64,000 nt of DNA from Tubulanus polymorphus (Eukaryota > Animalia > Nemertea): NCBI RefSeq assembly GCF_964204645.1, contig NC_134028.1, positions 12,385,263 through 12,449,262 on the forward strand, given 5' to 3'. The notes below the pieces were generated by a model, which was not told where the DNA came from, ran no database searches, and was given only the letters and a program-made list of their open reading frames with translations. The number at the start of each line of letters is the position of its first letter. The stretch's first letter is position 1. The translations under genes were made by a program, and so were the position numbers. This document shows positions 21,430 to 59,756 of this stretch, piece after piece.

Positions 21430-21924
21430 GTGATGAGTGGTGTTTCGACCTCTCGACCTCTGGTATGAAACCCCACTTTTACAATTACTGATAAATCTCA
21501 AAGGGCAAGACATAATAAAACTAAAACACATTTAGAAAATAAATTGAAATTGGAATATAAAGATGATATATTAGAAACTAAATTAGAAGAATTAAAGAAT
21601 GAAAAAGAAATATACAAATGAGATAGTACATGTAATCAATCATTCAGTGATATAAGATATTATAAAGAACATTTAAAATCTAAAAGTCATATTAGAAATA
21701 TGAATAATGAGTGAAATAATATAAAAAGTAACGAGTAATTAACGAGTTAAAGAAAATATGAATTTTAAACATAAAAAGTGTGAGTTAAGTGTGAGAAGTA
21801 ATTCATACTTTAACAGATTTCGAATAAAAACATAGTCAATTAATCAAATTTTTAAATATAAAAAGTAACCAGTAATTAAAAAGTTGAAGAAAATATCAAT
21901 TTTAATAAAAAAAATTACTTATAA

Positions 21925-24245: not shown

Positions 24246-24249
24246 TAAA

Positions 24250-25413: not shown

Positions 25414-25445
25414 TTATTATAGAAAGTTTTATTAAAATTAAAATT

Positions 25446-26684
25446 CTAATACATAACACTATTCAATTGAGAATTTATGATATTTGATTGCGCTTCAGAT
25501 ATAAGATAAATTTAAACCTCCTTTTTTCTTTTTCATGAATAATTGTATTCCATCTTTAGTGTTATGTAATTTCTTCCCAGAACCATGTAATAAGTTATCC
25601 TCTGTTGTTCTAAAATCTAACCATAATGCGTATTTATTACCGGTATAATAATCAATTTGATTAATATTACAATTTTCAAATGATTTTACTTTTTCATTCA
25701 TAAAATGTTTTTTAATTTCTGGCCACTGGTCATTCTCATTCTCATTCCCTGACAAAATATTTTATTAGCTATTCCTTCGACAGTTATCTCTACTTTTGTT
25801 ATTTCAGGATTATAATAATTATCAACATTTATTGCGCCATTAGAATATATGTTGCAATGGTAAAAAATATTGATACACGTTTAATAGATCTTCTTGGGAA
25901 GTTGATACTTTCATTGATTATTTCATCATTTGCATTAATAGTTACAGTTTTGAATTTATCAATATAATCATATAATAATGAAAATCCTTGGTTGTATTGA
26001 GTTTGAATTGTGCTAGCAATATTTTCATCAGTTACTGTGTCATATTCTAAACATATATTCGATGATTTATATCCCATATTTTTAACAACGCTTGATAATA
26101 CAATTTCATTAACAGGAGAAAATGTTATTTCAAATATAATATCTTCTTGTATTGCATATTTATATAAAGGCGCATTATTATTTATCGATCAAAATCTAAT
26201 TGAATTTTATATTTGCTTCCATAAATCTTTTTTATCAAATTATCTGCGGCACGAGTAACTGTTGCGTAGTTAGCTCCTGACATTAATTTATTATGGTTTT
26301 CTGATTGGAAGCCTTGAAATATCATATTATTTCTATTTTAATTTGTTAACCATAAATCTTTATAATGCACAAATAAATTATAATCATCTAATGAGAAAAC
26401 TGTTTGTGGTCCAATCATTATAGTTAATTTTTTAGTCAAATATCTCCCAACATTATCTACAACATAATTATTATCATGGCCAGTTACTTTTATATCAGCC
26501 GAAAAATAAATACTATTTGGAACATAAAAAGTATTTTGATTTAATCTCGGGATTCTAACATATAAAGTTTCATCGGGATTAATATTTGAAGGATTATGAG
26601 TAATAATATGATGAGATCACTCTGCTTTAATAGCATTAGTTATTCTAGAAGTCTTAGAAAAGGATTTATGTAACTCCCACTCAT
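25446..26684 (-). pseudogene. Major capsid protein (putative double jelly-roll), frameshifted
   Basis: Homolog of 36370-37593 (ALWLDFRTTEDN.LHGSGKKL). Confidence 0.65.
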
Positions 26685-26699
26685 TTATTTAAAAAAATA

Positions 26700-29600: not shown

Positions 29601-31602
29601 TTTTTATATTCAATTTTGAACTTATTCCGGTTAAAACACTTGAACTTACTCCTAACATACAAATTGATATAGCTAAAGGAGTTAATGGACTGAATATTGC
29701 TAAAAATGTTATTACAGAACTTATTGTAACTGAACCACTAATAATAAAATAATATATAATTTTGCTTTTTAAATATTTTTTCTTTTTAACTTTTAAATCA
29801 TTTTCAAATTCTAATATTTTTTTTCCAAATATAATTTTAATTTAGTTTTATTTATATCATGGGGAATAATATCAACATTATCAACTTTATCATCCATTAA
29901 TTAAGAAAAGAAAATTACTAATTAGTAAATTTATATGCCACAAATATAACAATAACTGTTCCGCCTAAAATCCAAATTATTTCATATTTCTTCTGTTCGT
30001 TACTTGGGGTATAATAATCTGATATTGTAGGTTTATGTAGATGTAATTTTTCTTTATTTGTTACTGCGTTATATAAACTCATTCCATCATCAACTGATTG
30101 AAAATCTCTATGTAAAATTTTCTAATCATATAATTCTTTGTTAATCCATATAGTTTTGTCTTTTTTCTCTATATTCTTCTTTCTATTATATTTCTCTAAT
30201 GCTAAGTTATGTCTTTTTTGTTCTGATAATGAACCTTTTTTATCAATATGTTTAAATGAATATCCACCACCAATAAATGCTAAAGCGTTACCAATTACCG
30301 ACCCTTTAATAGTTATAATTGCAGATGCCATTTATTTAGTTAAAAAAATTATGTTTTTATATAGGAGGAATATATTTTTGTTTTTCCAAATAATCAACTG
30401 TTAAATTAGATAAAGTAACTGCTAACATTAATTTTAAAATGTCATTGATATCAAATCTAACAACATTAATAATTCCCATTCTAAATACTTTTTTTAATAC
30501 CATTGTATAACCAACAGTTCCAACTGATAATGATGCTCCATTGTATAACCCATTTATTATCCACTTATTATCACTTATTTATTAATCAAAAAGATTACAA
30601 TCTTCAAAATATTTAGTTATCTTATTTATGATTATTTCAACATTTATTTCATTACTACTTTTATGATTAACATATATTTTAGATAATATGTTTTTAATAT
30701 CATCGATTATTCCATCTTCATTAAATGATATACTTTTAATATCAGTAATTACATCATTTAGTTTAACTGTCATTTCTTTACCATGTTTAAAATCAAATCC
30801 AAAACATATGCTCGGTCCAACAGTTATATTCATTTATATAGTGAAAAAATTACTCTTTACATCTTATAACTAATTCATAAATTACAGGGAAATTATTTAA
30901 ATCAATTAAGTAACTATTATGATTTCTTACTTCTAATTTAAAATTATTCAATTTTGGAATACAATGTTTGAAATCACATTCAGCCAAATTATAATTTATT
31001 TGTGTTCCAAATTGTTTAACATTTTTTAATGGTAAAATATTTAATATACTAGAATTACAAATTCTATCTTAAGTTGCTTCAAATGTTTTTGTAGGATCAA
31101 TTAAATTTCAATAAATATAAAAGTGTGTTAAAGGTATTATATTTGAGCTACCTTCTGCGTTTCCAGTAATAATATGCAGTTTACTTCCTAGCATTTTAGC
31201 TATTGCTTTGTTTACCATAAATTTATTTTGTTCAGTAGATAACTTTATTCTTATTTTATTAGAACTATCAATTTTAATAAATTTAATTCCAAATTCATCA
31301 GTACTCCCGATTTTCAGCCAACCTCTTCTATTTATTTCCTGTGCTAATGATTCTAAATTATATAATCCTGGTTTTAAAAATAGATGAAACCATTTATTTT
31401 TATTTCTCATATAAATTGCAAACCTCTATGTTCAAAAGTTTTATCCGATATATTATAAAAAGAATTACATAAACTTACATTTACTAATTTTAAATCTACA
31501 CAATTTTTAAATCTTCTATCTAATTGTACAGGTAAATTATGAGATTTAGAATTAAATAGTTTTCTAGAATCAACATATTCTCTATTTTTTCAATTCTACC
31601 AT
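26700..31602 (-). pseudogene. Degraded structural module: membrane/coiled-coil gene, 441-aa homolog, small TM genes, penton-like gene
   Basis: Colinear with 37618-42671. Confidence 0.75.
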
Positions 31603-31625
31603 TTATTTTACATATTTTTATATTA

Positions 31626-31994
31626 CTAAAAATCTATATCATGATGCCCATTTTCATTCTTACCTTTAAATATGAAATAGAAATCATCTGAACATAATTC
31701 TTCTAAATCTTCACTAGATAATCTATGAAATCTATCTGGTAAATATGTTCTGAATTTATATTTATTTCCTTTTAATCCTTCATATTCTAAGTGGATAACT
31801 AATTTATCTCCATATTTGTTAGTAACTCTATCAATATTTGTAATTAGATATTTCTTTGAGAGATTTGGTAATTCTGTTAACTTCTTAAATTTATAATTTA
31901 CAGATTTGACATTTGTAGTATCTTTTATTCTATTCAAGAATTCACTGTGTATTTGTTTACTCTCCATTTTAATAACATATTTATTTTTTATCAA
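31626..31994 (-). CDS. Small conserved protein, possibly OB-fold/SSB-like
   Basis: TNKYGDKLVIHL..TYLPDRF..FKGKNENGHHDI; homolog at 32977-33302; the fold is a guess. Confidence 0.55.
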   Translation of the reverse strand: MIKNKYVIKMESKQIHSEFLNRIKDTTNVKSVNYKFKKLTELPNLSKKYLITNIDRVTNKYGDKLVIHLEYEGLKGNKYKFRTYLPDRFHRLSSEDLEELCSDDFYFIFKGKNENGHHDIDF

Positions 31995-32041
31995 AATTGA
32001 TTTTAGAAGTTATTCATACTCATATATATGAATATTATTAG

Positions 32042-32154
32042 AGTAATTGGGAATAAGTTGTTTCGAGTTAAAGGTTGAAGGGTCGAAAAATAAATTCGAG
32101 TGTGCGAGAATTTATTTTTCGACCCTTCGACCTTTGGCTTGAAACAACTTATTC
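32042..32154 (+). repeat. Terminal fold-back hairpin (47-bp stem, GAGTGTGCGA loop)
   Basis: 32051-32097 pairs with 32108-32154 with four G.T mismatches. Confidence 0.9.
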
Positions 32155-32159
32155 ACGAT

Positions 32160-32701
32160 GTTCAAAAGGGTCTGTGTACTCGTGTTTTGTAGATTTTAAA
32201 TGTGCATTTGACTCTGTATGGAGAGATGCCCTTTTCTACAAGCTTTTAAAAGCCAATGTAGGTGGAAACTTTCTAAAAACCATTATAAGTATTTATAAAG
32301 AGGTCTTATATTGTATTAAACTTGATAAAGGCATCACCTCTCCAAGTAATTCTTGTGTTGGTGTAAAACAAGGTTGTGTAATGAGTCCGACTTTATTTAA
32401 CTTGTTCCTATCAGACTTACCAAATATTTTTGATAGTTCATGTAATCCTGTCTCAGTTGCTGATCTCAATTTAAACTGTCTTATGTTTGCTGATGATTTA
32501 GTTTTATTTTCTGAATCAGCAACTGGACTCCAAAGCTGTTTAAACAAACTAGATAACTATTGTCAGAAGTGGCATTTATCAATCAATACCAAAAAAACTA
32601 AAATCATCGTATATAGCAAGAGTGGGCGTCTTGGAAGAAGCTTGAAATTTTATTTGAACGGATATTCTGAACTTGAAAATGTTAGTTCGTACTGCTTATG
32701 A
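32160..32701 (+). mobile_element. Non-LTR retrotransposon (LINE) reverse transcriptase fragment
   Basis: FVDFKCAFDSV, GVKQGCVMSPTLFNLF, LMFADDL. Confidence 0.9.
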
Positions 32702-32910
32702 GCCAGGAAGATCAATTCATGTATATTGTTTCATATGGCCATGGTGACACTGAAATTTTACCAGCTATCGATTTTGTAAATGACTCCATTAAAACTAAGT
32801 TTGGCTGAGATCTCGAATACACTGTACATTGTATATTAAAACGCATGTCATAGCCAGTGGCGCCGCACTAGCGGTCAATTTCGGAGATTTGATTATATTA
32901 AGTTTTTTTT

Positions 32911-32985
32911 TTTCATACCAGAGGTCGAGAGGTCGAGACACCACTCATCACCACAAGTAATTTTTTTTCCTTATAAATGGGAGAT
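32911..32985 (+). repeat. Left TIR (outer ~19 bp missing)
   Basis: TTTCATACCAGAGGTCGAGAGGTCGAGACACCACTCATCACCACAAG.. is the reverse complement of 49112-49187. Confidence 0.9.
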
Positions 32986-33302
32986 AGAAAAGCATTCTTA
33001 GCAACAATAAATAACAGAATAAAACCAGCAAAAAACAATTTGAAATAAAAAAGTTAGTTGATGTTACAAAAGAAATTGAACATAAAATATTGAAATTAGA
33101 AAAGATAAAAACTAAATATGGAGAGAAAGTATCAGCTAATTTAAGCTACTGCAATGTTAGTACATCGCGAGAATTTAAAGTATTTTTACCTGATAAATGG
33201 GTTTCATTGAGTACAGAGGAATTAAAAGATTTAGAAGGATTTAAAATAATCTATCATGGAAAAAATGAAGATGGCCATCATGATTTAGAAATTGTTGATT
33301 AA
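32977..33302 (+). pseudogene. SSB-like small protein, disrupted
   Basis: KTKYGEKVSANL..VFLPDKW..YHGKNEDGHHDL; homolog of 31626-31994. Confidence 0.6.
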
Positions 33303-33459
33303 ATTTTAAAAAAAATAAATTAATCAAAATAATGAATATCTAGAATCCGAAATGACTTATCTGGACAATTTAATTGCTCCGCATAGATAGACAAAAGTAG
33401 TGAGATATTCAATTAATATTCAATTAATTAAAAAAATTATTTTTTTGGCTTTTTTTCTA

Positions 33460-33833
33460 AAATATTAATCCATTTTTTTTATTGTCAATTTTGGAATTTC
33501 AGAATTATTTTCATTTTTGATAGCAGTTGTTTCAGAATTATTAATATCATGAATTTGATTTGATTTCTTATACCAATTACACCCAATCAAAATGAATACA
33601 ATTAAAAATCAAACTGTAAAATATAGACATTTATCAAATATTCTATCATTAGAAGGAGTAGAAATAACAATATTTTCACTATTTTTATTAACAATTTTAT
33701 TACTTATTTTTTCTTTTACAGCTTTTTTATATTCTTGTGATTTAATTCCTAATTGCCGAGACCATTCAATTTGTTTCTGTGATCTCGGTTTTTTCTTCAC
33801 AGTTAATTCCTTCACTTCTTCCACCTCGCTCAT
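33460..33833 (-). pseudogene. Small basic membrane protein
   Basis: KKPRSQKQIEWSRQLG; homolog at 57295-57656. Confidence 0.5.
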
Positions 33834-34371
33834 TTATTATAGAAATATTTTTACTTTCAATATTTGAAAATGTTATAACTCCAGTTGATAATAATGTCAT
33901 AAATCCGCCTAATTGAAATGATAAATATCCAATCCATTTATCTAATTCAGTCATAACTAAATAATCATTTTTTAAATCGGAATATAATCTATTTTCATCT
34001 TCAATTGGTAGTATATAATTACATAATTTACTATAACCTTTTACTACATTTTCTGATATCGCGTCATTAATTCTAGCTGTTCTCGCGGCTTCATAAATCT
34101 TAAATAATCTAATAATTTCATCTGATTTCATTGTATCTAATTCATTATAAGTTAAATTTTTACCGATAAAATTTTTACATTTTCCAGATGCTATTAATAT
34201 TTCTAATTGATGTTTACAATAAAGATAATATTCATAATTATTATTTGTTGTAACATTATTTAAAGCACCATCATCTGGAATTAATTTGTTTTCTGTTATT
34301 CCTGAATGATCTAAAGTTTTTTCAATTGGAACATCACCATTTTTAGATTTTATTTTCTTTTCACCTACCAT
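33766..34371 (-). CDS. Conserved hypothetical protein
   Basis: Homolog at 56693-57295 (FKIYEAAR.ARIND.IS, LYSDLKND). Confidence 0.65.
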   Translation of the reverse strand: MVGEKKIKSKNGDVPIEKTLDHSGITENKLIPDDGALNNVTTNNNYEYYLYCKHQLEILIASGKCKNFIGKNLTYNELDTMKSDEIIRLFKIYEAARTARINDAISENVVKGYSKLCNYILPIEDENRLYSDLKNDYLVMTELDKWIGYLSFQLGGFMTLLSTGVITFSNIESKNISIINERGGRSEGINCEEKTEITETN

Positions 34372-34394
34372 TTATATAACAAAAAAAATTAGTT

Positions 34395-34680
34395 GTGTTG
34401 TTGCAACTAGAATTCAACTAGAATGTAACTAGAATTCAACTAGATTAACAAGCTAGTTGAAATATTGTTGTTTTCATTTATTTCTTGTTGAATTTTATTT
34501 GATTTTTGTTTCAACTACTAATAAATAGAATTCAACTAGAATGTAACTAAAAATATACTAGATTAACAAGCTAGTTAAAATATTGTTGAATTTTATTTGA
34601 TTTTTGTTTCAACTACTAATAACTAGATTTCAACTAGAATATAACTAAAAATATACTACATAAACAAGCTAGTTGAATTT
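34395..34680. repeat. Intergenic repeats (TAGAATTCAACTAGAA..ACAAGCTAGTT), about three units of ~110 bp
   Basis: Seen directly; related motifs at 56445-56640 upstream of the homologous gene. Confidence 0.75.
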
Positions 34681-34746
34681 AAATAAATTCATATTTAAAT
34701 GTGTGTTGTAATAATCTAAATAGTAATTTTGATCTTTTAATATTTT

Positions 34747-35289
34747 TCAACTTATCCATATATCATTATGTAAATCATGTGGAATAATATCATTTTCCTC
34801 AAGCGCATTTTTCATCGATTTTCTATCTTTATTGTAGAATAAAACTAGAAATCTTATGTTTTCTCTAAAGTCTTTAACAATTGAATTATATTTTTGATTT
34901 AAAACCCAAGTTGTTATCCCAAAATGTCTTCCAGAGAAAGCTAAATAGCATAACTCACTTTCTCTTACTTTTGAATCATGTAAATTTGCGCAATCATCTA
35001 TAATGAATAATGTATTTGATCCTTTATAAATATCTATTGCTATTTTAATACAATCATCTAAATTTTCTTTAACTGTTTTAGGATCTAATATAATAAATGT
35101 ATTATTTCTAGTAATATTTCTATCATAAGTTTGATTAAATTCATATGTTGGACAAAATAATACTATATTATCAAAATAGTTTTCATAAACAGTTTCTAAT
35201 AAATTTAATATAAAATAAGTTTTTCCACAATTTGTTACGCCAGCAATTAACATATTATGAGGCTCAAATATAAATAATTCCTTATTCAT
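34747..35289 (-). CDS. Genome-packaging ATPase (A32/FtsK-HerA type); C-terminus probably frameshifted
   Basis: Walker A GVTNCGKT, Walker B LFIIDD, SGRH arginine motif. Confidence 0.88.
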   Translation of the reverse strand: MNKELFIFEPHNMLIAGVTNCGKTYFILNLLETVYENYFDNIVLFCPTYEFNQTYDRNITRNNTFIILDPKTVKENLDDCIKIAIDIYKGSNTLFIIDDCANLHDSKVRESELCYLAFSGRHFGITTWVLNQKYNSIVKDFRENIRFLVLFYNKDRKSMKNALEENDIIPHDLHNDIWIS

Positions 35290-36340
35290 TTATATATTTT
35301 TAATTTTACTTGATAATATCCATTCATTGAATTTATCTGGCCATCCAACCCATTTTACTAAAGAATATTTTTTTCTTTTAATAGTTTTTGTTTTTAATAC
35401 TTTTTCAATTTTATATTCTTGTTCTAGATTTTCAGTAGTTAAACTTAATTCTTCTTCGTAAAAGTAGCCATCAACTTCTTCACCATCTAAATCTTCTAAT
35501 TTATAGACATATGGTTTTGCTGTTATTACCTTTTTTATTTTATATGTTTCTCTAGTAAAATTTCGATCGTATCCTTTATCAAACATCTTTTTATACTTAG
35601 AAATTCTAACATTTTGACCAACTTTAAATTTAGGTTCACCAAAATCATCTACAAGAAATGCTCCATATGAATTATTCCAAACAATTTCAGCATTTTCAGG
35701 TTTTCTAGCATCAATAGGTTTCATTCCAATAGAAGAATGATAAGAATTATTATATCCTTCTATCAATTTTGGTAAAACATCAATCCATTTAAAAGTATTA
35801 TTTGCTGTAAAATATTTCCACATTCTTGTTCTTAATGTTCCATCAAATCGTTCAACAACTGCTGCTTTTTATCCGATTTTGTTGAAAAATATTTAATATT
35901 ATGAATATCTAAGAGTTCATGAACAAGTGAATTATCAAACTCTTTTCCATCATCAAATTGTATTTTTTCTGGTTTTAGTTTATCATCCGAAAGAAATTTT
36001 CTTAAAACATTTGATGTTTGTACAGCATCTTTTCTATAAAGTGGGAAGCTCCATACATAACGACTAAAAATATCAATTATATTCAATAACCACCAATAAT
36101 CATCATTTTTATATTTTCTAACAATTTTTTTATGTGTTGTGTATGTTGGTTGTTCTAACATAAATTCATTTATATCTTTATATTTAACTAAATTTTGTGG
36201 GATTATCTTATCTAATTTATCTTGTTTTACTTGACGCCATATATTTTTGGTAGAAGAATAAGCAACCGAACTCTCAGGGTTGTAATATAAATTTCTTAAA
36301 TATTGTTCTTTAGTATTAGGAGTTTTTTTTACCACCCATT
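35290..36340 (-). pseudogene. Retroviral-type (rve) integrase with C-terminal chromodomain, frameshifted
   Basis: IDIFSRYVW, IQFDDGKEF, YNNSYHSSIGMKP, LVKWVGWPDKFNEW. Confidence 0.9.
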
Positions 36341-36369
36341 TATATATCGTTAATTTTAACTTTATATTT

Positions 36370-37593
36370 CTAATATTGAATACTATCTAATTGTGAATTT
36401 ACAATATTTAATTGTGCGTCAGATATAATATAAATGTGCATTTTAAAATTTAAGCTTCCTTTTTTCTTTTTCATGAAAAATTGTATTCCATCTTTAGTGT
36501 TCTGTAGTTTTTTCCCAGAACCATGTAATGAATTATCCTCTGTTGTTCTAAAATCTAACCATAATGCATATTTATTGCCGGTATAATAATCAATTTGATT
36601 AGTATTACAATTTTCAAATGATTTTACTTTTTCATTCATAAAATGTTTTCTAATTTCTGGCCATTGTGATCTATCATTCTCATTCCTTGACAAAATATTT
36701 TATTTGCTATTCCTTCGATAGTTATTTCTACTTTTGTTATTTCAGGATTATAATAATTATCTACCTTTATTGCACCATTAGAATATGTTGCAATAGTAAA
36801 AAATATTAATATACCTTTAATAGATCTTCTTGGGAAGTTAATATTCTCATTAATTATTTCATCATTTGCATTAATAGTTACAGTTTTAAATGTATCAATA
36901 TAATCATATAATAATGAAAATCCTTGATTGTATTGAGTTTGAATTGTGCTAGCAATATTTTCATTAGTTACTGTGTCATATTCTAAACATATATTTGATA
37001 ATTTATAACCCATATCTTTAACAACGCTAGATAATACAATTTCATTTACAGGAGCAAATGTTATCTCAAATATAATATCTTCTTGAATTATTTATCAATT
37101 CAAAGTCTAATGGAATTTTATATTTGCTTCCATAAATCTTTTTTATCAAATTATCTACAGCATTAGTTACTACAGCATTATTGGCTTCAGATCTTAATTT
37201 ATTATGGTTTTCCGATTGAATACCCTGAAATATCATATTATTTCTATTTTCTTTAGTTAAGCATAAATCTTTATAATGCATAAATAAATTATAATCATCT
37301 AATGAGAAAACTGTTTCTGGACCAATCTTTATTGTTAATTTTTTAATCAAATATCTTCCAACATTATCAACAACATAATTATTATCATGGCCAGTTACTT
37401 TTATATCAGCTGATAAATAAATACTATTTGGAACATAAAAAGTATTTTGTGTTAATCTAGGAATTCTAACATATAAAGTTTCATCGGGATTAATATTTGA
37501 AGGATTATGTGTAATTATATGATGTGATCTTTCTGCTTTAATAGCATTAGATATTCTAGAAATCTTAGAAGGACTTATATAACTCCCACTCAT
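36370..37593 (-). pseudogene. Major capsid protein (putative double jelly-roll), split by frameshifts
   Basis: ~400 aa beta-rich product conserved in three copies, next to the ATPase and integrase. Confidence 0.68.
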
Positions 37594-37617
37594 TTATTTA
37601 ACAAAAAAATTAATTAT

Positions 37618-39055
37618 TTATTTTTTATTATTTTTTTCTTGATATCTTTTTGATATCATATTCACTAACCCAAAAATAATAGCACTTACAACTGTAATTA
37701 AAAATAAAATAATATGTTCAGCAGCAAAGTTAAGAATATTACCTGCAGATTTCAATATAAAACCAACAATTGATGCAATAATTCCTGGTAAAGCTGCAGC
37801 AGATTTTTTAGATAGTTCCCATAAATATTTTGCTAATTTTTTCAAACCATCCTTAACTTTATCTTGTATAGAATTATTATCATTCGGGGGTTTATCTGGT
37901 TTATTTGGAGTAGGAGTAGATTTTAAAGCATTTGATATTGCTAAACCAATTGTTGTAAATAACATAGTTACAGCTGTTAGAATTGAAAGAATTGTTATTC
38001 CTTCTAATTTAAATAATAACTTTATTCTATCTTTCAATGATATTTAAGAATTTGGTTTTATCAACAAATCTTTAAAAATAACTTTTAATCTATTAATATT
38101 ATAATCATATGATTTTAATAATAATTTAATTTCTTCTTTCTGTACTTCTAAATTATCTTTTAAATTATTAATTTATTTTTCTAAACGTAATTCTTTTTGC
38201 CTATATTCTATTTCATCAATTACTTGATGATCTAAATCAGCCTTTAATTGTTCTATTTCTTTATTTTTATCAGTTAATTCTTTTTCTAAAGATCTCTTAT
38301 ACGTTTATCATGTGCAATTTTATCAGATGCAAGTCTTATACTTTTAATTTCTCTAATTGCTTCAACAGAAAATATATTATTTAAATCTTCTAATTGTTGA
38401 TCTGTTGCATCAATTAATCCATTCGGTAAAAGTTTTTCAATTGGAACTTTATTTGATTTAAGTTTACTAGTTTTGGAAGTTATATTCTGTTCAGTTTCTG
38501 TTTCTGATTTCTTTTTGATTATTTCATATAATTCATTAATTTTTTGTTTAAATACGTCTATATTATCATCTTTTTCTTTTTGCGTAACATCAGTTATTTC
38601 ATTACTATTACTTATTATTTTAATTCTATCTAGTTCTAATTTTTTAAAGTTGATTTTGCTATTATTTTTTCTTCTTTCTTATAAAAGATATCAATATAAT
38701 TATCACCTTTCAAATGATAATACCATTTACCATTATCTAAAAATTTTAATTTATCTGCCAAAGGTCCAACGTTTTCATCATTTATGTTAAATTTAGAAAT
38801 TTCAATTATATGTTTTAATTTAGGTATTTTGTTTAAATCATTTAAATCTTTTTTAACTAAATCTGGGTCTAAATTTTCAGGATTTAATTGTGATTCTGCA
38901 TTTTTAATATAATCAGGCATATTTAAATTATTATTATATCCTGGCTCATTACCATCATTAAAACTTGTTTCACTAAAATCAGGTTGTTGTTCATCAGTTA
39001 TACCAGGTTCATCTAAAGGATCCATTCCAATATCTTCTCCACCTTCTACATCCAT
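37618..39055 (-). pseudogene. Acidic N-terminus / coiled-coil / C-terminal multi-TM protein
   Basis: ORF pieces 38636-39055 and 37618-38037; homologs at 26700-28150 and 62239-63667. Confidence 0.65.
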
Positions 39056-39071
39056 TTATATAATAAAAAAA

Positions 39072-40397
39072 TTAAAATTTAAAATATAATATTCCTCCTA
39101 TAACAATTCCTATACAAGTTAAAGCTAATTTAGTATTTTCATGGAATTTATTATCATTATCATTTTTAATTATATCATGTTGAATATTATCAGTTTTTAT
39201 ATTTTCTTTAGTATTGTAATCTTTTATTTTAGAATCATTATTTAATCTAATATTCTTAGTTTTAGTTTCAGTTGATTGAATATGTTTTTTATTTTTTTCG
39301 CCTTCCATTAATTTTGGAGCAGCAATAATTTTTTTATTTATATCATTTAATCCAAATGAATTATTTATTGTTGCAGTTTTAATTAGATTATTATAACCAA
39401 TTATATTTCCCATCTTTAATACTAAATCATTAGACATAATTAATAGATTAGGGCGTATACAATAATTTAATCTAATATGTGATTTATCTAAATAATTTTG
39501 ATATCTTACAATGTTTTCTGGAATCGATCTATTTTTATCATTATGAATGGAATCTTCAAATAATACTTTAAATTGTTTCTGAGCATCGAATGAAGTGTTA
39601 TCATTTCCAATTATTGGGGATCTTGTTTCAACTTGCGCACCTAAAATACATATCAAATAAGTTCTAATTGATTGATTTATTCTTTGTATTCCAGCTTTAG
39701 TAAAACCTTCACTATTTTCTAAAATGAAATTAACCCAACCATTATTGTTTTGTTGTTGTATATTATTATAATATTTTGGTAATTCATTCCAATTTAGTGT
39801 TCTTATATCTGAATTTGTCATTATTTTTCCAAATTCTTTAGTATACAATATTCCTAATCCACCCATTGTTCCAATTCTTGCTCTAAAATCTTTATTTGAA
39901 TTAATATTAAATTCATTACATATTTTATAAAACTTAGAAAAATTAATATTATTATTCAATTCTTTAAAATATTTTGAACCTGGTAAAGGACATTCTAATT
40001 CATCTAATATTAATTTTATTTGAAAATAAGTATGAAATCTAAAAAGTGATAACATCAATGGTAAACTTGGTTTGTTTAAATGATCATTCCAACTAATTCC
40101 ACATCCTGTTGTTGCGCAATAAACAGCAAAATTTAATTGGTTCTGCCAATACCTCATATTAGATTTTAATAACCATTGTTTTGCCTCATTTAAATTTTTA
40201 AAATTAATTAAATAGACATGAAATATATTTTCCATCTTTGCATTAAAATTATTAGTTTCAGTAACATAAATTTCTAAATTAGTTAATGAATATAAAACTT
40301 CATTTCTATATGTAATATCTTTATTAAAATCTATTGCTGGAATATTATATTTAATTGATTTATTATATTGGAAAGCTTTTGGAAAACTATCTACCAT
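39072..40397 (-). CDS. Conserved hypothetical protein with C-terminal TM anchor
   Basis: Intact 441 aa; WQNQLNFAVYCATTGCG; homologs at 28167-29450 and 63684-64000. Confidence 0.8.
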   Translation of the reverse strand: MVDSFPKAFQYNKSIKYNIPAIDFNKDITYRNEVLYSLTNLEIYVTETNNFNAKMENIFHVYLINFKNLNEAKQWLLKSNMRYWQNQLNFAVYCATTGCGISWNDHLNKPSLPLMLSLFRFHTYFQIKLILDELECPLPGSKYFKELNNNINFSKFYKICNEFNINSNKDFRARIGTMGGLGILYTKEFGKIMTNSDIRTLNWNELPKYYNNIQQQNNNGWVNFILENSEGFTKAGIQRINQSIRTYLICILGAQVETRSPIIGNDNTSFDAQKQFKVLFEDSIHNDKNRSIPENIVRYQNYLDKSHIRLNYCIRPNLLIMSNDLVLKMGNIIGYNNLIKTATINNSFGLNDINKKIIAAPKLMEGEKNKKHIQSTETKTKNIRLNNDSKIKDYNTKENIKTDNIQHDIIKNDNDNKFHENTKLALTCIGIVIGGILYFKF

Positions 40398-40413
40398 TTA
40401 TATAATAAAAAAA

Positions 40414-40848
40414 TTAATAATTTATTAATTCTTTTAATAATTTATCTTGTTCTTCAACTGTTATATGGCCATTTAAACTTATTATATAATCTAGTGTATT
40501 CTTTAATTTATTAATTTCTTTTATATTAGTTTTAATTTTTTCTTTATTACTTTTTATATTTAATTTTGAACTTATACCAGTTAAAACACTTGAACTTAAT
40601 GCTAACACGCCAATTGATATAGCTAAAGGTGTTAATGGACTGAATATTGCTAAAAATGTTATTACAGAACTAATTGTAACCGAACCACTTATAATCAAAT
40701 AATATATAATTTTAGATTTCAAATATTTTTTTTTTTTTATCTTTAAGTCACTTTCAAATTCTAATATTTGTTTTTCTAAATATATTTTTAATTTAGTTTT
40801 GTTTATATCATGAGGAATAATATCAATACTATCAACTTTATCTTCCAT
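40414..40848 (-). CDS. Two-TM coiled-coil protein
   Basis: 144 aa with a hydrophobic hairpin; TAAATG start. Confidence 0.7.
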   Translation of the reverse strand: MEDKVDSIDIIPHDINKTKLKIYLEKQILEFESDLKIKKKKYLKSKIIYYLIISGSVTISSVITFLAIFSPLTPLAISIGVLALSSSVLTGISSKLNIKSNKEKIKTNIKEINKLKNTLDYIISLNGHITVEEQDKLLKELINY

Positions 40849-40867
40849 TTATTTAGAAGAAAAATTA

Positions 40868-41290
40868 CTAATTAGTCAATTTATATGCAACAAATATAAC
40901 AATAACTGTTCCACCTAAAATCCATATTATTTCATATTTCTGTTGTTCATTACTTGGGGTATAATAATCTGATAATTTAGGTTTGTATAGATGTTATTTT
41001 TCTTTATTGGTTACCGCGTAATATAAACTCATTGCATCATCAACTGATTGAAAATCTCTATGTGAAATCTTCTGATCATATAATTCTTAGTTAATATAAT
41101 CCATATAGTTTTGTCTCTTTTCTCTATATTCTTCCGCTGCTTTATTGTATTTCTCTAATGCTAAGTTATGTCTTTTTTGTTCTGTTAATGAACCATTTTT
41201 ATCAATATGCTTAAATAAATAACCACCACCAGTAAATGCTAAAGCGTTAACTATTGCCGATCCTATAATAGTTATAATTGCAGAAGCCAT
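40868..41290 (-). pseudogene. Small membrane/structural protein with internal stop
   Basis: MASAIITIIGSAIVNALAFTGG; homolog at 29917-30331. Confidence 0.65.
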
Positions 41291-41314
41291 TTATTTAGTA
41301 AAATAATTACGCAT

Positions 41315-41536
41315 TTATATGGGAGGAATATATTTTTGTTTTTCCAAATATCCAATAGTTAAATTAGATAAAGTAACTGCTAATGTTAATTTTAAAATAT
41401 CATTCATATCAAATCTATCAACATTAACACTTCCCATTTTAAATACTTTTTTTAATACCATTGAATAACCAACAGTTCCAACTGATAGTAAGGCGCCATT
41501 ATATAATCCAGTTATTATCCACTTATTATCACTCAT
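41315..41536 (-). CDS. Small hydrophobic protein
   Basis: 73 aa; several homologs in the window. Confidence 0.7.
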   Translation of the reverse strand: MSDNKWIITGLYNGALLSVGTVGYSMVLKKVFKMGSVNVDRFDMNDILKLTLAVTLSNLTIGYLEKQKYIPPI

Positions 41537-41539
41537 TTA

Positions 41540-41893
41540 TTAATTAAAAAAATTACTATCTTCAAAATATTTATTTAACTTAGTTATGATTATTTCAACA
41601 TATATTTCATTACTAGTTTCATTTGTATATATTTCAATTATTATTTTTTTAATATCATCGATGATAAAATCTTCGTCTAATTCATAAAATCTTAAAGATT
41701 CTCTAATTAAATTAGTAATCTTTTCTACATTTAAAGTTTCTTTATCTATTGTTGTTTCATACTCAAATGTTGTTTCATTAGAAAATGCAATATTTTTGAT
41801 ATGTGTAATTACATCATTAACGTTAAATTTCATTTCTTTCTCACGTTTAAAATCAAATCCAAAATATATGCTCGGCCCAACAGTTATATTCAT
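41540..41893 (-). CDS. Hypothetical protein
   Basis: 117 aa; homolog at 30582-30833. Confidence 0.65.
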   Translation of the reverse strand: MNITVGPSIYFGFDFKREKEMKFNVNDVITHIKNIAFSNETTFEYETTIDKETLNVEKITNLIRESLRFYELDEDFIIDDIKKIIIEIYTNETSNEIYVEIIITKLNKYFEDSNFFN

Positions 41894-41909
41894 TTATATA
41901 ATGAAAAAA

Positions 41910-42671
41910 TTACTCTCTACATCTTATAACTAATTCATAAATTACAGGAAAGTTATTCAAATCAATTAAATATCCATTGTGATTTCTTATTTCTAATTTA
42001 AAATTATTAAATTGAGGAATGCAAGGTTTAAAATCGCATTCTGTTAAATTATAATTTATTTGAGTTCCAAATTGTTTAACATTTTTTAGCGGTAAAATAT
42101 TTAGTATACTAGAACTACAAATTGTTTCTTTAGTTGCTTCGAAAGTTTTTGTAGGATCGATTTTTAAATTGCAACAAATATAAAAGTGTGTAAAAGGTAT
42201 TAAGTTTGATCTACCTTCTGCGTATGCTGTAACAATATCTGGGTTAATTCCTAACAGTTTACCTAAAGGTTTTCTTACTGTAAATTTAAATTGTTCGTCA
42301 TTAGCTAACCTAATCTTTATTTTATTAGAACTATCACTTTTTAAAATTCTAATACTAAATCCGGAATCACTTCCTAATTTAGCTCGAGCTTTTCTATTAA
42401 TTTCTTGTGCTAATGTATCTAAATTATATAATCCTGGTTTTAAATATATAAAAAACCATTTATTCCTTTGTTTGTAAAAGATTGAAAAAATTAAATGTTC
42501 TAGACTTTTATCCGTTATATTGTAAAATGAGTTACATAAACTTATATTTACTAATTTTAAATCAACACAATTCTTAAATTCTCTATCTAATTGAACTATT
42601 AAATTATGTGATTTATAATTTTTAAGTCTTCTAGAATCAACAAATATTCTGTATTCTTTTAATTCGACCAT
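41910..42671 (-). CDS. Putative minor capsid (penton-like) protein
   Basis: Intact 253 aa; conserved ends with a variable middle across four copies. Confidence 0.62.
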   Translation of the reverse strand: MVELKEYRIFVDSRRLKNYKSHNLIVQLDREFKNCVDLKLVNISLCNSFYNITDKSLEHLIFSIFYKQRNKWFFIYLKPGLYNLDTLAQEINRKARAKLGSDSGFSIRILKSDSSNKIKIRLANDEQFKFTVRKPLGKLLGINPDIVTAYAEGRSNLIPFTHFYICCNLKIDPTKTFEATKETICSSSILNILPLKNVKQFGTQINYNLTECDFKPCIPQFNNFKLEIRNHNGYLIDLNNFPVIYELVIRCRE

Positions 42672-42739
42672 TATTTATAACATAAAAAAATTACCGCTCA
42701 TCACTAAAAATTAATTTTAATAAAATTTTTCCTTAATAA

Positions 42740-44060
42740 ATGGATGAGAAGATACCATGCGAAATTTGTGGTGAACTTCTAAGAAAAAGTAATATGGCTC
42801 GACATATAAAAAAACATGATGAAAATTATAAACCCCCTAAACTAAACTGCCCAAAATGTAATAAATTATTCTCAAGAAATTATGTTAAAAAACATTCAGA
42901 GAAGTGTAAAATTAATGGCGCAACGGCTAATGTTGATAGTAATGAAAGTAATAGTAATTCTGTTGAAGTTGAACCTGAAATTATTTGGAAAAGACCTTTC
43001 TTATTCTATGACAAGGATAATATAAAAGATCATTTCTGCGAGCCTTGTCGAATAAAATATAACCCTGAAAATATAGAAGATTGGGAGAATCATCAATTTC
43101 GTAAAGTACATATAGATAAAATTTCTTATAAATTTGAAACTGAATTCAATGAAAGAAAAAATAGTTTATTAGAAAAAATAAAATATGAGAAAACGTTACC
43201 AGATAATAAAGAAACAGTTGAAAAGTTAGAAAACAATATAATGAATTAACAAGAAAAACATATTATTGTAAATATTGTAAATTGATTATTACAACAAGTA
43301 ATTCAAATCTACATAATAGAACAATAAAACATAAAGAAAACGTAAGAAAATACCAAGAGCTTAATGAAGATCTATTACCAATAAATTATAAACGAAAATG
43401 CCCACAATGTAGTTATGCAACCTTAAGGCAAGAAGGTACTGTGTTATTTTGTAATGAATGTGGATGGCAAAAGAATTTATAGGGTGAAGAAAAAACTAGA
43501 GATTTTCTCATAGAACCAAACTTAAATTATCTGGATGAAATTTTTAAAATATTTTCTATAGAAGATCCGACACCAGAATATATGCAATGGCTTGAAAAAA
43601 TGAAAATGATAGAAAATAAAAATGGTGAAATAACTAAAAAAGATATTATAAAAACAATTATTCCATCAACATTTCACACAAAACAAAAGAAAATGTATTT
43701 ATATTTATTATTTAACGATTATTATGAAAAACCTAAATTAACAGAAGAAGATATGGAAAATATAAAAAAAATATTCAAACAAATATTAATGTATCATTTG
43801 GAAAATAGAATAACAGATTCAATTAATTATGAATTCTTTTTAAATAAGATTGTAAATTATTTAAACATCGATATTATAATTCCATCTGACGAATTAACAA
43901 ACAAAAAGAAACAAAGAGAGCGAGATGAAATAAGATAGAACTTTTTTTAAATGAGAAAAATGAAATGGAAGAACCTAAACAAATTATACAAGAACAATTA
44001 AATGAAAATGAAGAAGCCAATAGTGATTTCGAGTATGATGATATTGATTTTATGTTTTAA
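42740..44060 (+). pseudogene. Multi-zinc-finger protein with acidic tail
   Basis: CEICGELLRKSNMARHIKKH, CPKC..H, CPQC..CNEC; frameshift and stops. Confidence 0.78.
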
Positions 44061-47000
44061 TGGCCATAAGGTAATGTTTTTATACCATCATCTAAAATAT
44101 GCCTTTTATCATCAAATGGATTCAAACTAGTTTTTTCAACTTCATTAATGTACATCTCGTGATCTTCTGATCTTAAACAATTCATTTTGTGTTTCATTAC
44201 AATTTAGTTATATAAACACTTTATATAATCTTGAAATTCTATATGTTTATCAACCACATGTTTTGTCATTCCTTTTAACTTTTAAGCTTCATGATCTTTT
44301 GTTCTATAACTATACATTTTACTTCTTATCCCAACAAATTCAATCATTTCATCACCCCCTAATTCATCTTTAAACTTACCAGGAATCTTTTTATTATCAT
44401 TGCTAAATAGTTCATGATCTTTGGGATAATTGCTAAAATCAAAATGATGTTTTAATGTTTTTAAGTCTTTTGTTATGTCATTTGTCTTGATTTTTAGTAT
44501 GTACGCATCCGTATTTTTGGCTATTAATGGAAATCCACAGTTAAATGTACCATCTTCAGTTGATAAATTATAAACATAATCTGATGGGTTATATATTTCA
44601 AATAAATCTTTAACTTCTTCTGTTAATTCTTTTTCTACATGCCTTAAATTAAAACAATTTGGTTTAGATTTAATTAATTCTATATTCATATTAAATCCTA
44701 ATGAACTATATAATATATTTAATCCTGATATAGCAACTTTTCCTTTCTGTGCAAATGTTATCTTTTTATCCTTTGTAAATTTTTTAGTGCCATCTGCGGC
44801 ATAGAATCCAATGAAGAACCATTTTCTTAAATCATTTTTTGCATTTAATACATAATCTGGTACTATCTTTTCTTTTGTTGAAGTATTACTTTTCACTATT
44901 GCATGAATATAGAATTCATCATTATATTTTATAGCAAAATCTTTAGGATTATTTACAAGTATTCTATAAACTGCTGATGATTTCATAACATCTATGATTT
45001 TAAATGTTTTATGAGAATAAACTTCTTCACAGAATTTCTTAATTCTTTCTAATAATTTTAAGTCTTGATTACATAAATACCAACAATATTTATTACCCCA
45101 AACATAATTATACACACCTGCTGAACCATCACCCATGAAAAATCCTTTGATAAAATATTCTTTTTCGTCTAATGTTTCGGGTTCTATATTATAAATATTA
45201 TCAATAATTTCATCAAATGACATATGATTCATTCTTTGGAAAAATCTTTTATGTAATCATTCATCTCCAATTTTTATATCAGTTGGTTTTATTTCATCGC
45301 CATTTCGTTTAATTAAACTATGACATTCTGTAACATCTACAAACCCTAATTTAGTTCTAACTCTATAGATTTTCTTATTTGTTTTATGCCTAATAATATT
45401 CTTTAATTTTTTCCATCCATTTCTTGTCCAAACATCCATTATCCATTTATTTGTATTAATTCTTTTTCACCATATGAAATATAACATTCATTTTGTTTTG
45501 GAATTATTTCTGAAATTCTTCTTATCAATATTTTATCATTACATTTAAATAATATTGGGGTGTCAGCTGTTACAGAATCAAAATATAATATTTCAATATG
45601 CTTTTCCCCAAAAAGTGGTTGTAAAACATTATAATAAAAATCATACATTAATAATTTTGATACTTCTAAAACAGTTGAACCAATAAATATAGGTTTATTA
45701 AATTTCATTGACGTTCTTTTTAATTTAACTGCTGTTAAATAATCTTCAAATCTTTTATTTCCTAAATGTCTAGGACTTGATTGTAGGTGTCTTAATCTTT
45801 CAGAATTATTTACTAATCCAATATCATTTCTATTTCTAATATTTTCACATGTTTTGCCATAAAAACTATTATTCATTAATTTGAAGAAATCTTTTTCAAA
45901 ATCTGTTTTTGATATGGTTCTCTGTTGAGTATTAAAATCTATATATTTTTCTAACCACTTCGATTGATTAAATTCAATATATCTATGTACTTTCTTTAAT
46001 TTCATTCCTTGTTTTAGATAAAATTTTAACATTCTGTAATGAACAATATAATTGTATTTATTATTTTGAGTAAGTATTAAGTTTTCTGTAAAAACATGAT
46101 CTTTCGGTTTTATTTTCTTCTGGTATTCACTTAAATAACTATCATCTACAGTTAAATGTTCTGGGCAATAAGGTAAGTTTCTTGTTTTAAACTTTATATT
46201 TTCAGGATATTCTGAATCAACTACAAAGAAATAACCAATTGGTGCTTCATCTTTTAAACTCGCAATTGCGCTTTCCCAATCAGTTTTATCATCATTTTCA
46301 ACTTCTGTTAATATAAAATTTTTATATGGTTGAGGTTGCATCATTGCCCAACCATATAAATTATTGGCGTCATTATATAATAATTTATATTCATCATTTG
46401 CTTTAAAATACCTATCTCCCATAACACCACTAATTCCACCTCTAATTGATTTTTCAAATAATAAAACCATATCTGGTTCTTTAAATAAATCTAATTCTAC
46501 ATTTGTATATTTTAAACCACATTGCCAGGTTAAACCAGGACTAGAGTAGCAATAACAATAACAAGGATCAACATTAAAATGATTCAAATTAACTTCCCTA
46601 AATTTTTCAAATATGTCAGCTTATATCATAACATCTGATTTTAAATATAAATCAACTAATTCAATGATTTTTCATCTTAAAATGGTTCCAAATATTTAAT
46701 GTTCTATTAAACATTTCGTCTTTCACATACTCCTCTTTTAATTGATCATAAAATTAATCTTTTAATAATTCTGTTACATTAAAATCATTGTGTGTTTTAT
46801 AAAATGAATAAGGAATTGCGCCTTTTTATCTCAATAATTTAAAATCTTTTTCATTTGGATAGTAATATTGAGTTATAACAAAATCATTATCAACTAAACT
46901 TTTTGATAAATTATCTAATGAACTTGCTAGAAATCTATAAGAATCTAAAAATCTAATGCAACCAAATTGAAAATAAATATAATTTTCAGATGTTTTAGCT

Positions 47001-49121
47001 AATAGTTTAAAATCATATTTTCTTACATTTACACCATTCATAGCATTATATTCTTCTATTTCCTGATCAATTGCACCCAATTTTCCCGATAATTGTTTTA
47101 TAAATAGATGGGTATCATAGCCTGATAAATTATGAAATAATATTGGTACGAAATTAACTTTCTTAGCTTGTAAATTGCAATCTTCATGAGCAGCTCCACG
47201 ATATTTTGAATTTAAATGATCATGATCTCTAACTTTTTTATCAAATGAATAAAAACGTTTTTCACAATAACAACAATGAGTTGCATAATTAAAATCAATT
47301 TCATCTTCTTTTGTCATAACTATTCTTTTATTTTTGTTTAATAATTTTGCAAAATCACTTTCTAATTCAATCATTTTGTCACAAAAATCATTAACTACAT
47401 CTTCACCTCTAAAAGAAATATATTGACTTTCATATAATTCGGGATAATTTGATTTGATGTAAATTCCATAAGCAGCAGCTCTTGATGAACTTTTTTAATT
47501 GTATTTATAATTGGCGGGTCTTGTGTTGTGTCTTCATTTAATTCATTTCCTTTATCCATTGATTTTAATAATTGCTTTTTGTTATATATTTTTTTTCTAT
47601 CTTGATCAGTTAATTCTTTATTCAACGATTCAAAATCCCCATAAATTACAAATGGAACAATATTCTTAAATTTATGATTAGTAAATTTAAATTTATAATC
47701 TTTTTCTGTTGGCATTATTAATTTACAAAAATCTGTATTATCACATAATTCTTTATGTTTTAATAATGTATTCTCAGTCATAAATTTAGATAAACATTTT
47801 CTACATAGATAAATTTTATTATGGTGATCACTTTCTGTTCTAAAGAATAAATCAATTTGTTTTAACCACATATAATGTTCATTTTCATCTTTTTTTGTAA
47901 TATAAAAAATCTATAGCATTTTCATCATCATAATATTCTGTTAAATATAAAGCTTCCAATGTATAATCTTTAATATTTTCACCTTTTGTCTTTGGTAATT
48001 GCATTAATTCAAATACATTTATTCTTAAATTATTAACTTTTTCTATTTTAGGAATCATTTTTATAGTTACTGGATATTGATCAATTTTATATAATGTTTC
48101 ATATTTCCGGTAATTTCTTATTCTAAAACTATGCGTCATATCTTCTGTTGGGTGTAAACAACTAATAATTGACCATAGAAAACATTTATTATCTTCATTT
48201 TGAACATTTATTACTGCTTTTGTTGTAAATGGTAATTTAATATAAGATGATGCTTTAATATCCTTTTCTGTTGTAAAGTTTGAATCATTTTTAAACATTT
48301 TATTACTTTTTGATGTTTTATTCCTTTTTGTATTGTAAACATTTAAATCTAAATATATAATTTCATTCAATGTTAAGCCAGAACCCTCAAAATATCTTTC
48401 TTCAATATGACGTTTAAATTCATTAAATATTTTTTCTCTTTTATTTGTGTTTTTGAAATTATTTCTTCAGAGTGTGTTTGAATATTATAATTCATTTTTT
48501 CTTCTGACTTTATAAAACTTACTTTCCCAGAGATACTAATTTTTGGATATTCAACATCTGTTATCAAATCTAGTATTTTTTCTATTATTTCATTAAATTT
48601 ACTATAATCTTCTATTGTTGTTCCTTTAAAAAATCTAAATATAATAGCTGCAGGACCAATTTTACTACGTAATGTTTCTAAAATTTCAATTGTATCTTTT
48701 ATTTCTAGTGAATCAATATAATTTCTAACATTTTCCATGTAAGGTTTATTTGAAATGGATTTAGTTTTTGAAGTTGGTTTTTTTACTTGTTGAGGTTTAT
48801 CATCAAAATAATCTTTTCCTAAAACATTATTACTCAAATTTTGGCGGTGTTTTTGTGATTCAATATGTCTATTATAATTCCTTTTTACTATAAATTCATT
48901 ACAAACTTCACATTTTATTTCATCCACATTCATATTTTCTAATCTTTCTTTTCTTTCATTGGAATTTTCTGGAGTTTCAAAATCTATTACATTTTTTATA
49001 TGATTTGCAGTTTTTCATGTCGTGATTTTTGGGATTTATCGATGTATTTTTTACAATATTGGCAATAATATTGATTTTTATTTACATTATTGTTTTCTGG
49101 CTGGTGTTCATTCTCCCCCAT
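44057..49121 (-). pseudogene. pPolB polyprotein copy 3 (Zn fingers, terminal-protein region, OTU-like Cys/His segment, exonuclease with EndoVII-like insert, polymerase with intein)
   Basis: NKCFLWSI..HYMW, FVIYGDFES, CCYC..VRDHDH..YRGAAHEDCN, FHNLSGYD, DANNLYGWAM, KLMNNSFYGK; start codon lies inside the TIR. Confidence 0.95.
44513..45576 (-). mobile_element. Intein (~355 aa) with LAGLIDADG homing endonuclease in pPolB copy 3
   Basis: YFD-[SVTADTPI..DVTECHSL..YFIKGFFMGDGS..WFFIGFYAADG..VYNLSTEDGTFNCGFPLIAKN]-TDAY. Confidence 0.92.
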
Positions 49122-49206
49122 TTATTAGGAAAAAAAATTGCTTGTGGTGATGAGTGGTGTCTCGACCGCTCGACCTCTGGTATGAAAGCCCACTTTCCCA
49201 ATTACT
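49112..49206 (-). repeat. Right TIR ending ...CCCAATTACT (5'-AGT terminus)
   Basis: Matches the left TIR and the copy 2 end at 21430-21489. Confidence 0.88.
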
Positions 49207-54278: not shown

Positions 54279-54527
54279 CTTAAAATATTCATATATATAT
54301 GAATAACATTTAAATGAATAACATTTAAATTGACAGATTATTCAATATAAAAGTGTAAGCTCTTATAGAATAGATATATAGATATATTTACAACATTATT
54401 TCAATATTCATATTTGTATGAGTTAGATTTTTAAACATTAAAAGTGTTAGTAAAGTGTGATTGAAATAATTCATATTTAAATCATTGAACTTCTAAAATC
54501 AATTTAGTAAAAAAATTTGATATTAAA

Positions 54528-57656: not shown

Positions 57657-57662
57657 AATAGA

Positions 57663-59755: not shown

Positions 59756-59756
59756 A

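Follow-up and report, generated by a model that had tools for sequence, protein, structure and literature searches.

The element and its gene starts

The window analysed here is a 64,000-nucleotide stretch of the genome of the nemertean Tubulanus polymorphus (contig NC_134028.1, positions 12,385,263 to 12,449,262, forward strand; GC content 25.6%). At approximately 32906-49192 it contains a 16.3-kb element, copy A, which is a decayed Polinton/Maverick bounded by inverted repeats at both ends, the outer ends being approximate. Nearly every gene of copy A begins at TAAATG, mostly preceded by a T-run and a short spacer, and this arrangement is very probably a transcription start signal of some kind. 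The terminal inverted repeats (32911-32984 and 49114-49187) are 95% identical. A 6-bp target-site duplication was looked for at the ends and none was seen; the left end abuts a fragment of a long interspersed nuclear element (LINE; window 32050-32900), in which a reverse transcriptase piece was recognised (PF00078, expect value (E) 4.5e-15).

The gene content corresponds to that of animal Polintons/Mavericks (the beta-type 'adintoviruses' of Starrett et al., PMC8502044), which likewise combine capsid genes, inverted repeats and a length of ~16 kb with a DNA polymerase of family B that is protein-primed (PolB), an rve integrase and an A32-type ATPase. In copy A the polymerase gene (44057-49121, minus strand) is in pieces, one of which matches PF03175 at E 2.9e-5, the packaging ATPase matches PF04665 at E 6e-14, and the retroviral-type integrase, to which a chromodomain is attached in copy A, is recognised by PF00665 (E 3e-8 and 3.6e-9). 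The capsid gives a weak Pfam match only (PF16903, E 7.5e-4), and its gene is conserved in 35 of the 82 related loci described below. No Sputnik-type Pfam match (PF21915/PF22031) was obtained for this capsid, whereas a control, the virophage contig L120, matches at E 6e-92. RNA polymerase and capping enzyme were not detected by Pfam among the copy A open reading frames scanned, and neither was a maturation cysteine protease, for which no dedicated profile search was made.

Two features set the copy A family apart from the animal Polintons described there: its genes start strictly at TAAATG, and its polymerase contains an intein. The intein, which had been claimed in an earlier, sequence-only reading of the window, lies inside the polymerase catalytic motif (44513-45576, minus strand) and carries a LAGLIDADG domain (PF14528, E 2e-6). 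An intein of this type in the same motif of a Polinton polymerase recurs in the window at ~16740-17760 and ~6970-7950. To our knowledge, inteins are unexpected in nuclear genes of animals. The word 'intein' is absent from the main texts of PMC8502044 and PMC11131425. The HNH genes proposed in the same reading find no Pfam support at 54528-54890, 55000 or 56175.

Other partial copies within the window are 80-92% identical to copy A, and a second layout type is present in addition. A single DNA run of the same organism yielded 15,264 contig records on copy A, spread over every identity band, which is consistent with a multi-copy family. In run X1, contig depth was higher on the structural genes than on the polymerase, depth not being equivalent to copy number.

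The pattern AATTTTTTN{3,9}TAAATG is matched 15 times in the window, whereas 100 dinucleotide shuffles average 0.52 matches and never reach 15. Since these matches include homologous copies and are not independent, 15 gene starts were fixed within copy A for counting, most of them by alignment to the near-intact relative L002. Thirteen lie on the minus strand. T7-N6-TAAATG stands before the major capsid gene (motif 37591-37611; gene 36370-37593, in pieces), a broken conserved gene (39053-39073; 37618-39055), an intact conserved 441-aa gene that served as the marker (40395-40415; 39072-40397) and a 73-aa gene (41534-41554; 41315-41536), T8-N6-TAAATG (34369-34390) before a conserved 201-aa gene (33766-34371), and T6-N7-TAAATG (41891-41911) before a 117-aa gene (41540-41893). 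The inverted repeats each carry T8-N5-TAAATG, on the left (32959-32979, plus strand) at the start of a broken small gene (32977-33302) and on the right (49119-49139, minus strand) at the probable start of the polymerase. A motif with five T precedes a 144-aa gene (40846-40866, minus strand; gene 40414-40848) and, on the plus strand at 42722-42742, the zinc-finger/VLTF-3-like gene. At 41288-41308 (minus strand), the start of a broken gene (40874-41290), the T-run is interrupted. The remaining TAAATG starts, all on the minus strand, are A-rich upstream. They comprise 33831-33851, which is devoid of a five-T run and whose start aligns to residue 1 of L002 open reading frame 9951, 35287-35307, the start of the A32-type packaging ATPase (34682-35289, broken near its end), where the TAA of TAAATG is the stop codon of the integrase, and 36337-36357, where the broken gene for the rve integrase with its chromodomain (35290-36339) probably begins. 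Finally, a shifted motif, T7-N6-TAAAT-A-ATG (42669-42692, minus strand), precedes a gene (41910-42671) that we take to be penton-like. This start and that at 42740 are divergent and 68 bp apart.

The claim of the sequence-only reading that most genes carry the motif was thus borne out. The starts at 34371, 37593, 39055, 40397 and 41893 and both inverted-repeat starts (32977 and 49121) fit the motif as it had been written, while at 40848 and 42740, listed there with a T-tract, TAAATG is present and the T-run amounts to five T only. Three starts had been given as TAAATG alone; this holds for 35289, 41290 has an interrupted T-run, and 41536 in fact bears the full motif. Absent from the original list were 33833 and 36339, both A-rich upstream, and 42671.

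TAAATG is found at 14/15 copy A starts compared to 27/417 other same-strand ATGs, whereas AAAATG occurs at 0/15 and 45/417, respectively. A T-run plus TAAAT is present at 11/15 starts and at 4/417 other ATGs. The starts at 32977, 36339 and 49121 belong to broken genes, and the motif itself played some part in their selection; leaving them out, TAAATG remains at 11 of 12. The 14 TAAATG starts also differ in their flanks from 40 non-start TAAATG, with AA at -18/-17 in 13/14 versus 6/40, T at -13 in 13/14 versus 14/40 and A at -4 in 14/14 versus 14/40. The T-run peaks at a fixed distance, 10 nt upstream of TAAAT, position -13 being that tenth base. The leading AA of the motif is often part of the TAA stop of the upstream gene. 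Some other window copies read TAAAATG (21151 region, 31967 and 54528). As with the integrase and ATPase, the upstream regions of several second-type element genes are A-rich in place of a T-run.

At 42671 the T-run, spacer and TAAAT all lie 3 nt further from the ATG, as they do in the copies at 838 and 15018, and TAAAT persists off the ATG in the relatives L003 and L004 as well. The motif is therefore tied to TAAAT and not to the start codon. No AG occurs in the 14 nt before any of the 15 starts, and a splice or trans-splice acceptor was accordingly rejected.

Two further sequence elements were observed near the starts. One, roughly AATTTTRATAAAA, stands at -30 to -18 of 21925, 25413, 31967, 54528, 56175, 60910 and 42740, marking zinc-finger, nuclease-like and small terminal genes, several of which have an A-run replacing the T-run. 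The other is the decamer CRCTCATCAC, a putative binding site, which is present in the inverted repeats and also where 68 bp separate the penton-like gene from the zinc-finger gene (positions 42695, 862, 32942, 49156, 21186 and 21439).

The start motif in related elements

The marker gene has 309 homologues, and an alignment of 51 was used to fetch loci. The resulting set of 82 related loci comprises the best 80 of 427 confirmed metagenome loci and two from genome contigs. Open reading frames were taken from their first ATG and clustered. Those that belonged to one of 15 sense-strand families and had a start near that of a homologue were retained; antisense clusters were dropped. The starts of the relatives were in this manner called without use of the motif.

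In clade I, the four closest loci (21% GC), TAAATG was found at 18/20 starts, TAAAT within two bases at 20/20 and AAAATG at 0/20. Clade II consists of 16 loci at 37% GC and 35-41% protein identity, three short ones having been placed there without a tree, and shows TAAATG at 55/62 starts and AAAATG at 0/62. The corresponding TAAATG frequencies at other ATGs are 8.1% and 3.5%. When similar orthologous starts were collapsed, TAAATG remained at 14/16 (clade I) and 39/45 (clade II), and T at -13 was present in 14/14 of these clade I starts against 20/53 non-start TAAATG, and in 34/39 against 23/63 in clade II. Overall, TAAAT(G/A) overlaps or abuts the start codon at 15/15 starts of copy A, 20/20 of clade I and 57/62 of clade II. 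Both motif clades receive good support (100; 100 for 12 rows) in a quick tree built from 71 rows. By contrast, thirteen other AT-rich loci have TAAATG at 4/40 and AAAATG at 15/40 starts, and 47 GC-rich loci have TAAATG at 3/163.

The spacing is retained together with the motif. The T-run keeps its distance to the start even within upstream coding sequence (L001, L002, L004). At four of seven capsid-gene junctions in clade II, two TAAATG starts stand back to back only 14-15 bp apart, one for the capsid gene and one for the gene diverging from it, which leaves almost no templated leader. Viral contigs were also searched, by a capsid piece, the marker alignment and one exact motif, and no relatives were found.

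Several loci outside or beside these clades show start regions of their own. In L006 a T-run is followed by TATAGA/TATA before the ATG, a variant that recalls the late TATA initiator of African swine fever virus as given in the accessible text of PMC7458399, and in L005 a T-run or A-run is followed by TAAAA-ATG. Upstream words were likewise noted in L062 and L071, in the L060-L080 clade and in the L018-L053 clade (TTAAAA near -28, TTGAA near -24 to -37, TTGAAC near -32 to -45); these are uncorrected for multiple tests and lack an AT-rich intergenic control. The close relative L002 carries, inserted beside its zinc-finger gene, a deoxynucleoside kinase gene with the full motif (10340-10981, minus strand; PF01712, E 1.7e-31). 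L081 and L082 are Polinton contigs filed in two bacterial metagenome-assembled genomes, probably through binning contamination.

The sequence-only reading had named a mere host AAAATG Kozak context as the finding that would speak against it. In animals the Kozak context has a purine at -3, and T is the disfavoured base. The motif has T at -3, and AAAATG is found at 0/15, 0/20 and 0/62 of the starts, so that the reading withstood this check. The low GC content and the several copies of the same genes in the window might suggest that the motif merely results from an AT content of 77-80%, the Kozak preference of the host and descent of the copies from a single founder. This is highly improbable and largely refuted, since the AT-rich relatives use AAAATG and the motif is kept at 37% GC in a clade ~35-41% identical in protein, besides being common to different genes of one copy, in which AAAATG is avoided.

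It is somewhat less improbable, though still unlikely, that TAAATG acts in translation or RNA processing, as a stop-start coupling on polycistronic RNA, an insulating in-frame stop, or a poly(A) signal AATAAA belonging to the gene upstream. In favour of such a function, the TAA coincides with the upstream stop at 35289 and in several tandem pairs among the relatives, and about half of the starts read AATAAATG. Within copy A, on the other hand, the TAA is an upstream stop at only 1/15 starts, and the motif is equally strong at divergent or terminal starts that have no upstream gene (32977, 34371, 42671, 42740 and 49121). TAAAT is moreover kept when out of register with the ATG, and the lack of AG before the starts counts against processing by splicing.

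The sequence-only reading had in addition pointed to TTTTTNT as a poxvirus-type early terminator. This was rejected: the T-runs track the start and not the stop, and although clade I coding sequence holds 5 instances against 12 expected, A-runs are depleted as well.

The VLTF-3-like gene and other features of the window

The gene that begins at 42740 (42740-44060, plus strand) encodes C2H2/U1 zinc fingers followed by a zinc ribbon and a helical domain (43390-43938). It is broken near 43230-43250, by a stop at 43480-43482 and near 43930. The Pfam profile PF04947 (VLTF3) matches one piece below its cut-off (E 0.0019, 18.4 bits against 25). A search of 1.84 billion representatives gave four matches. 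Three are plausible homologues, one of which is an intact protein of 697 aa with 50% identity. Word-based homologue searches for the domain returned nothing new, and the ESM Atlas gave only sub-0.9 leads.

A structural model of 43390-43935 was built from a five-row alignment, with a mean predicted local distance difference test score (pLDDT) of 75.5. Against BFVD it gave seven matches at E<=0.001. VLTF-3 of cowpox virus ranked first (E 1.5e-5, template modelling (TM) score 0.60), followed by an unnamed entry and, at ranks 3 and 4, by VLTF-3 of two entomopoxviruses; below these came a moumouvirus entry under the name exonuclease, together with two giant-virus proteins that are VLTF3-like. A search against PDB yielded nothing at E<=0.001. 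The predicted fold of the C-terminal domain thus best matches poxvirus VLTF-3/A2L, although the order of the matches is no proof that a poxvirus was the donor. VLTF3-like genes have already been noted in some Polintons and related elements (legend in PMC8502044; accessible text of PMC11131425); new here is the domain of this predicted fold at the end of the 42740 gene.

Elsewhere in the window, the second element type (21500-32040 and 54300-64000) has the same structural genes in another layout, together with orphan genes, and includes palindromic repeat blocks at 23365-24280 and 59350-59760. The orphan open reading frames 11679-12008 and 21925-22533 gave no RNA polymerase subunit match in Pfam, NCBIfam or PDB sequences (model pLDDT 38). 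Tandem 2146-bp units, 97-99% identical to one another and composed of rearranged Polinton pieces, lie at 1784-6970. A Gag-protease open reading frame of the long terminal repeat type at 51960-53195 (minus strand) reaches only E 0.28 in Pfam; its Cys-His pattern is presumably BEL/Pao-like. Together with the LINE piece, this reading frame points to an animal as host.

Transcription of the element

According to PMC11980589, the late promoters of vaccinia have at the start codon an overlapping TAAAT, after which G is the usual base; ten bases upstream there is a conserved T amid weaker T, and intermediate promoters are A-rich upstream. PMC5294985, in the part accessible, describes a T-containing core 5-7 bp from TAAAT(G/A). 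Copy A resembles these promoters in having TAAAT on the ATG, three A, a T ten bases upstream and a 4-7 nt spacer, and a minority of its starts is A-rich upstream like the intermediate class. The proposed likeness to poxvirus late promoters accordingly stood up in its geometry (PMC11980589), and the VLTF-3-like gene adds support. Unlike vaccinia, copy A encodes no Pfam-detected RNA polymerase or capping enzyme. The yeast cytoplasmic linear plasmids pGKL1/2 also differ from it, having their own RNA polymerase and capping enzyme and no capsid. Since a poxvirus-like late signal stands at nearly every gene and a VLTF-3-like protein is predicted, the element likely borrows the RNA polymerase of a helper. 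We therefore favour, at a probability of roughly 0.5, the reading that the motif serves as a compact viral promoter of the late type, which the RNA polymerase of some co-infecting Nucleocytoviricota virus likely recognises. This helper is most likely poxvirus-like, but could belong to another Nucleocytoviricota lineage.

By analogy with mavirus, integrated copies would be silent until a Nucleocytoviricota virus infects the cell. The late machinery of this helper would then read the motif, and the predicted VLTF-3-like protein of the element would likely help to draw the polymerase to the element genes. Transcription would start inside AAA, where slippage, by analogy with vaccinia, would add a non-templated 5' poly(A) leader; in the accessible text of PMC12722222 such a leader is ascribed to polymerase slippage at the initiator. 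A start inside AAA would leave the T at -3 out of the mRNA, which would account for the retention of a base so poor in the Kozak context.

The arrangement resembles that of virophages and helper-dependent Polinton-like viruses (PLVs), such as mavirus and the endogenous mavirus-like elements (EMALEs), PgVV and Gezel-14T, which likewise integrate and carry one short motif before most genes. Their clades differ in motif (PMC8547959, accessible text), as do the Polinton clades here, and promoters of the helper type have been described in virophages and PLVs of protists (PMC8547959, 10.1101/2022.07.28.501842 and 10.1101/2025.10.09.676808). The differences are that their hosts are protists and their helpers known mimivirus relatives, and that the copy A capsid has no Sputnik-type match. 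An animal parallel may exist in the small, integrative PLVs of entomopoxvirus occlusion bodies, proposed by Barth et al. to be animal poxvirus hyperparasites (PMC11296320). The accessible text of PMC11296320 does not mention promoter, TAAAT or VLTF, and 'promoter' occurs 0 times in the main texts of PMC8502044 and PMC11131425, where no promoter motif is described for Polintons. In the literature covered, which fell short of most subscription papers, supplements and Repbase-type annotations, no paper was found that describes an animal Polinton with a promoter of the poxvirus type.

A motif scan of IMG/VR returned at least 120 single matches, of which 80 loci with flanks were examined; 36 of their 510 open reading frames start with TAAATG, and among the matches listed only L120 stood out. 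This contig is a Sputnik-type virophage with a T-run plus ATAAATG at the starts 1516, 3004, 3042 and 4822, one of the four by selection. L120 supports the notion that the motif works like a virophage promoter and weakens the notion that the helper must be a poxvirus: with the same architecture present in a virophage, it need not be one. The label 'poxvirus-type' in the sequence-only reading was, to this extent, too narrow.

Several further observations weigh against a helper of this kind. Neither the window nor the at least 120 IMG/VR motif matches, each of them a single match, yielded any sequence of a helper. The polymerase and structural genes of copy A have a single promoter type, with no early class. 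The sister loci L005 and L006, which adjoin the window clade in the quick tree, have TAAATG at 0/12 starts, and they stand between the two motif clades, which are not neighbours; the motif was therefore either gained twice or changed in the sisters. With regard to VLTF-3, PF04947 gave no match for longer pieces of the 42740 gene nor for the intact homologue P0171 or for P0172 and P0174, and VLTF3 was not found in the 82 related loci, which are short and mostly without that region. The first rank of poxvirus A2L in BFVD may be due to its shortness. VLTF3 is also present in small viruses such as mriyaviruses (PMC11253617, accessible text) and hence does not by itself imply a poxvirus helper. Finally, PIWI knockdown and differentiation in a planarian lead to a gain of H3K4me3 and RNA at its Polintons (PMC8532177), and in corals the core genes of polintoviruses show expression (PMC11131425). 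Host RNA polymerase II (Pol II) thus does transcribe some animal Polintons, though possibly ones that lack the motif.

The main alternative is a possible, if less probable, explanation: host Pol II in the nucleus would transcribe the element, steered by the zinc-finger/VLTF-3-like protein acting as a TFIIB-like initiation factor, and the likeness to poxvirus promoters would reflect shared ancestry of the factor. Such a factor is encoded by the element itself, and its zinc ribbon gives a weak TFIIB match (PF08271, E 0.041), the top PDB match, non-significant at E 0.19, being from a yeast initiation complex (5fyw_M). The expression of planarian and coral Polintons without a known helper agrees with this scheme, as do the upstream words of other clades, e.g. 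TTAAA near -28 and TTGAA near -30 to -38. Left unexplained by it are the T at -3 combined with exactly three A and the back-to-back starts of clade II at 14-15 bp. Clades I and II also lack a consistent AATAAA downstream of their stop codons, and clade I genes show no depletion of AATAAA on the sense strand (85 observed, 86 expected), in a test that did not separate the clades; the poly(A)-signal and splice-donor depletion tests as a whole did not separate them. Moreover, the factor gene has the same promoter, so that its first expression needs another source. The argument that the element leaves no room for Pol II promoters, as advanced in the sequence-only reading, does not discriminate between these possibilities, relatives without the motif being just as compact as those that bear it.

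Animal Polintons may be expressed as autonomous nuclear viruses or may depend on a helper, and their virions have rarely been observed. With a motif of 20 bp that agrees, base for base, with a viral promoter known in detail, the question of a helper becomes testable, and the kind of large DNA virus to expect in the host can be predicted. Carried further, transcription by a helper polymerase raises the tentative picture of an endogenous animal virophage, a Polinton lineage that would parasitise a poxvirus-like virus of its invertebrate host, would be expressed from copied late promoters in the cytoplasmic factory of this virus and might use its own VLTF-3 to outcompete helper genes. If this were true, the virophage way of life, and possibly an antiviral role, would reach from protists into animal genomes, and the start motif of each animal Polinton clade would be a record telling which large DNA virus wakes that clade.

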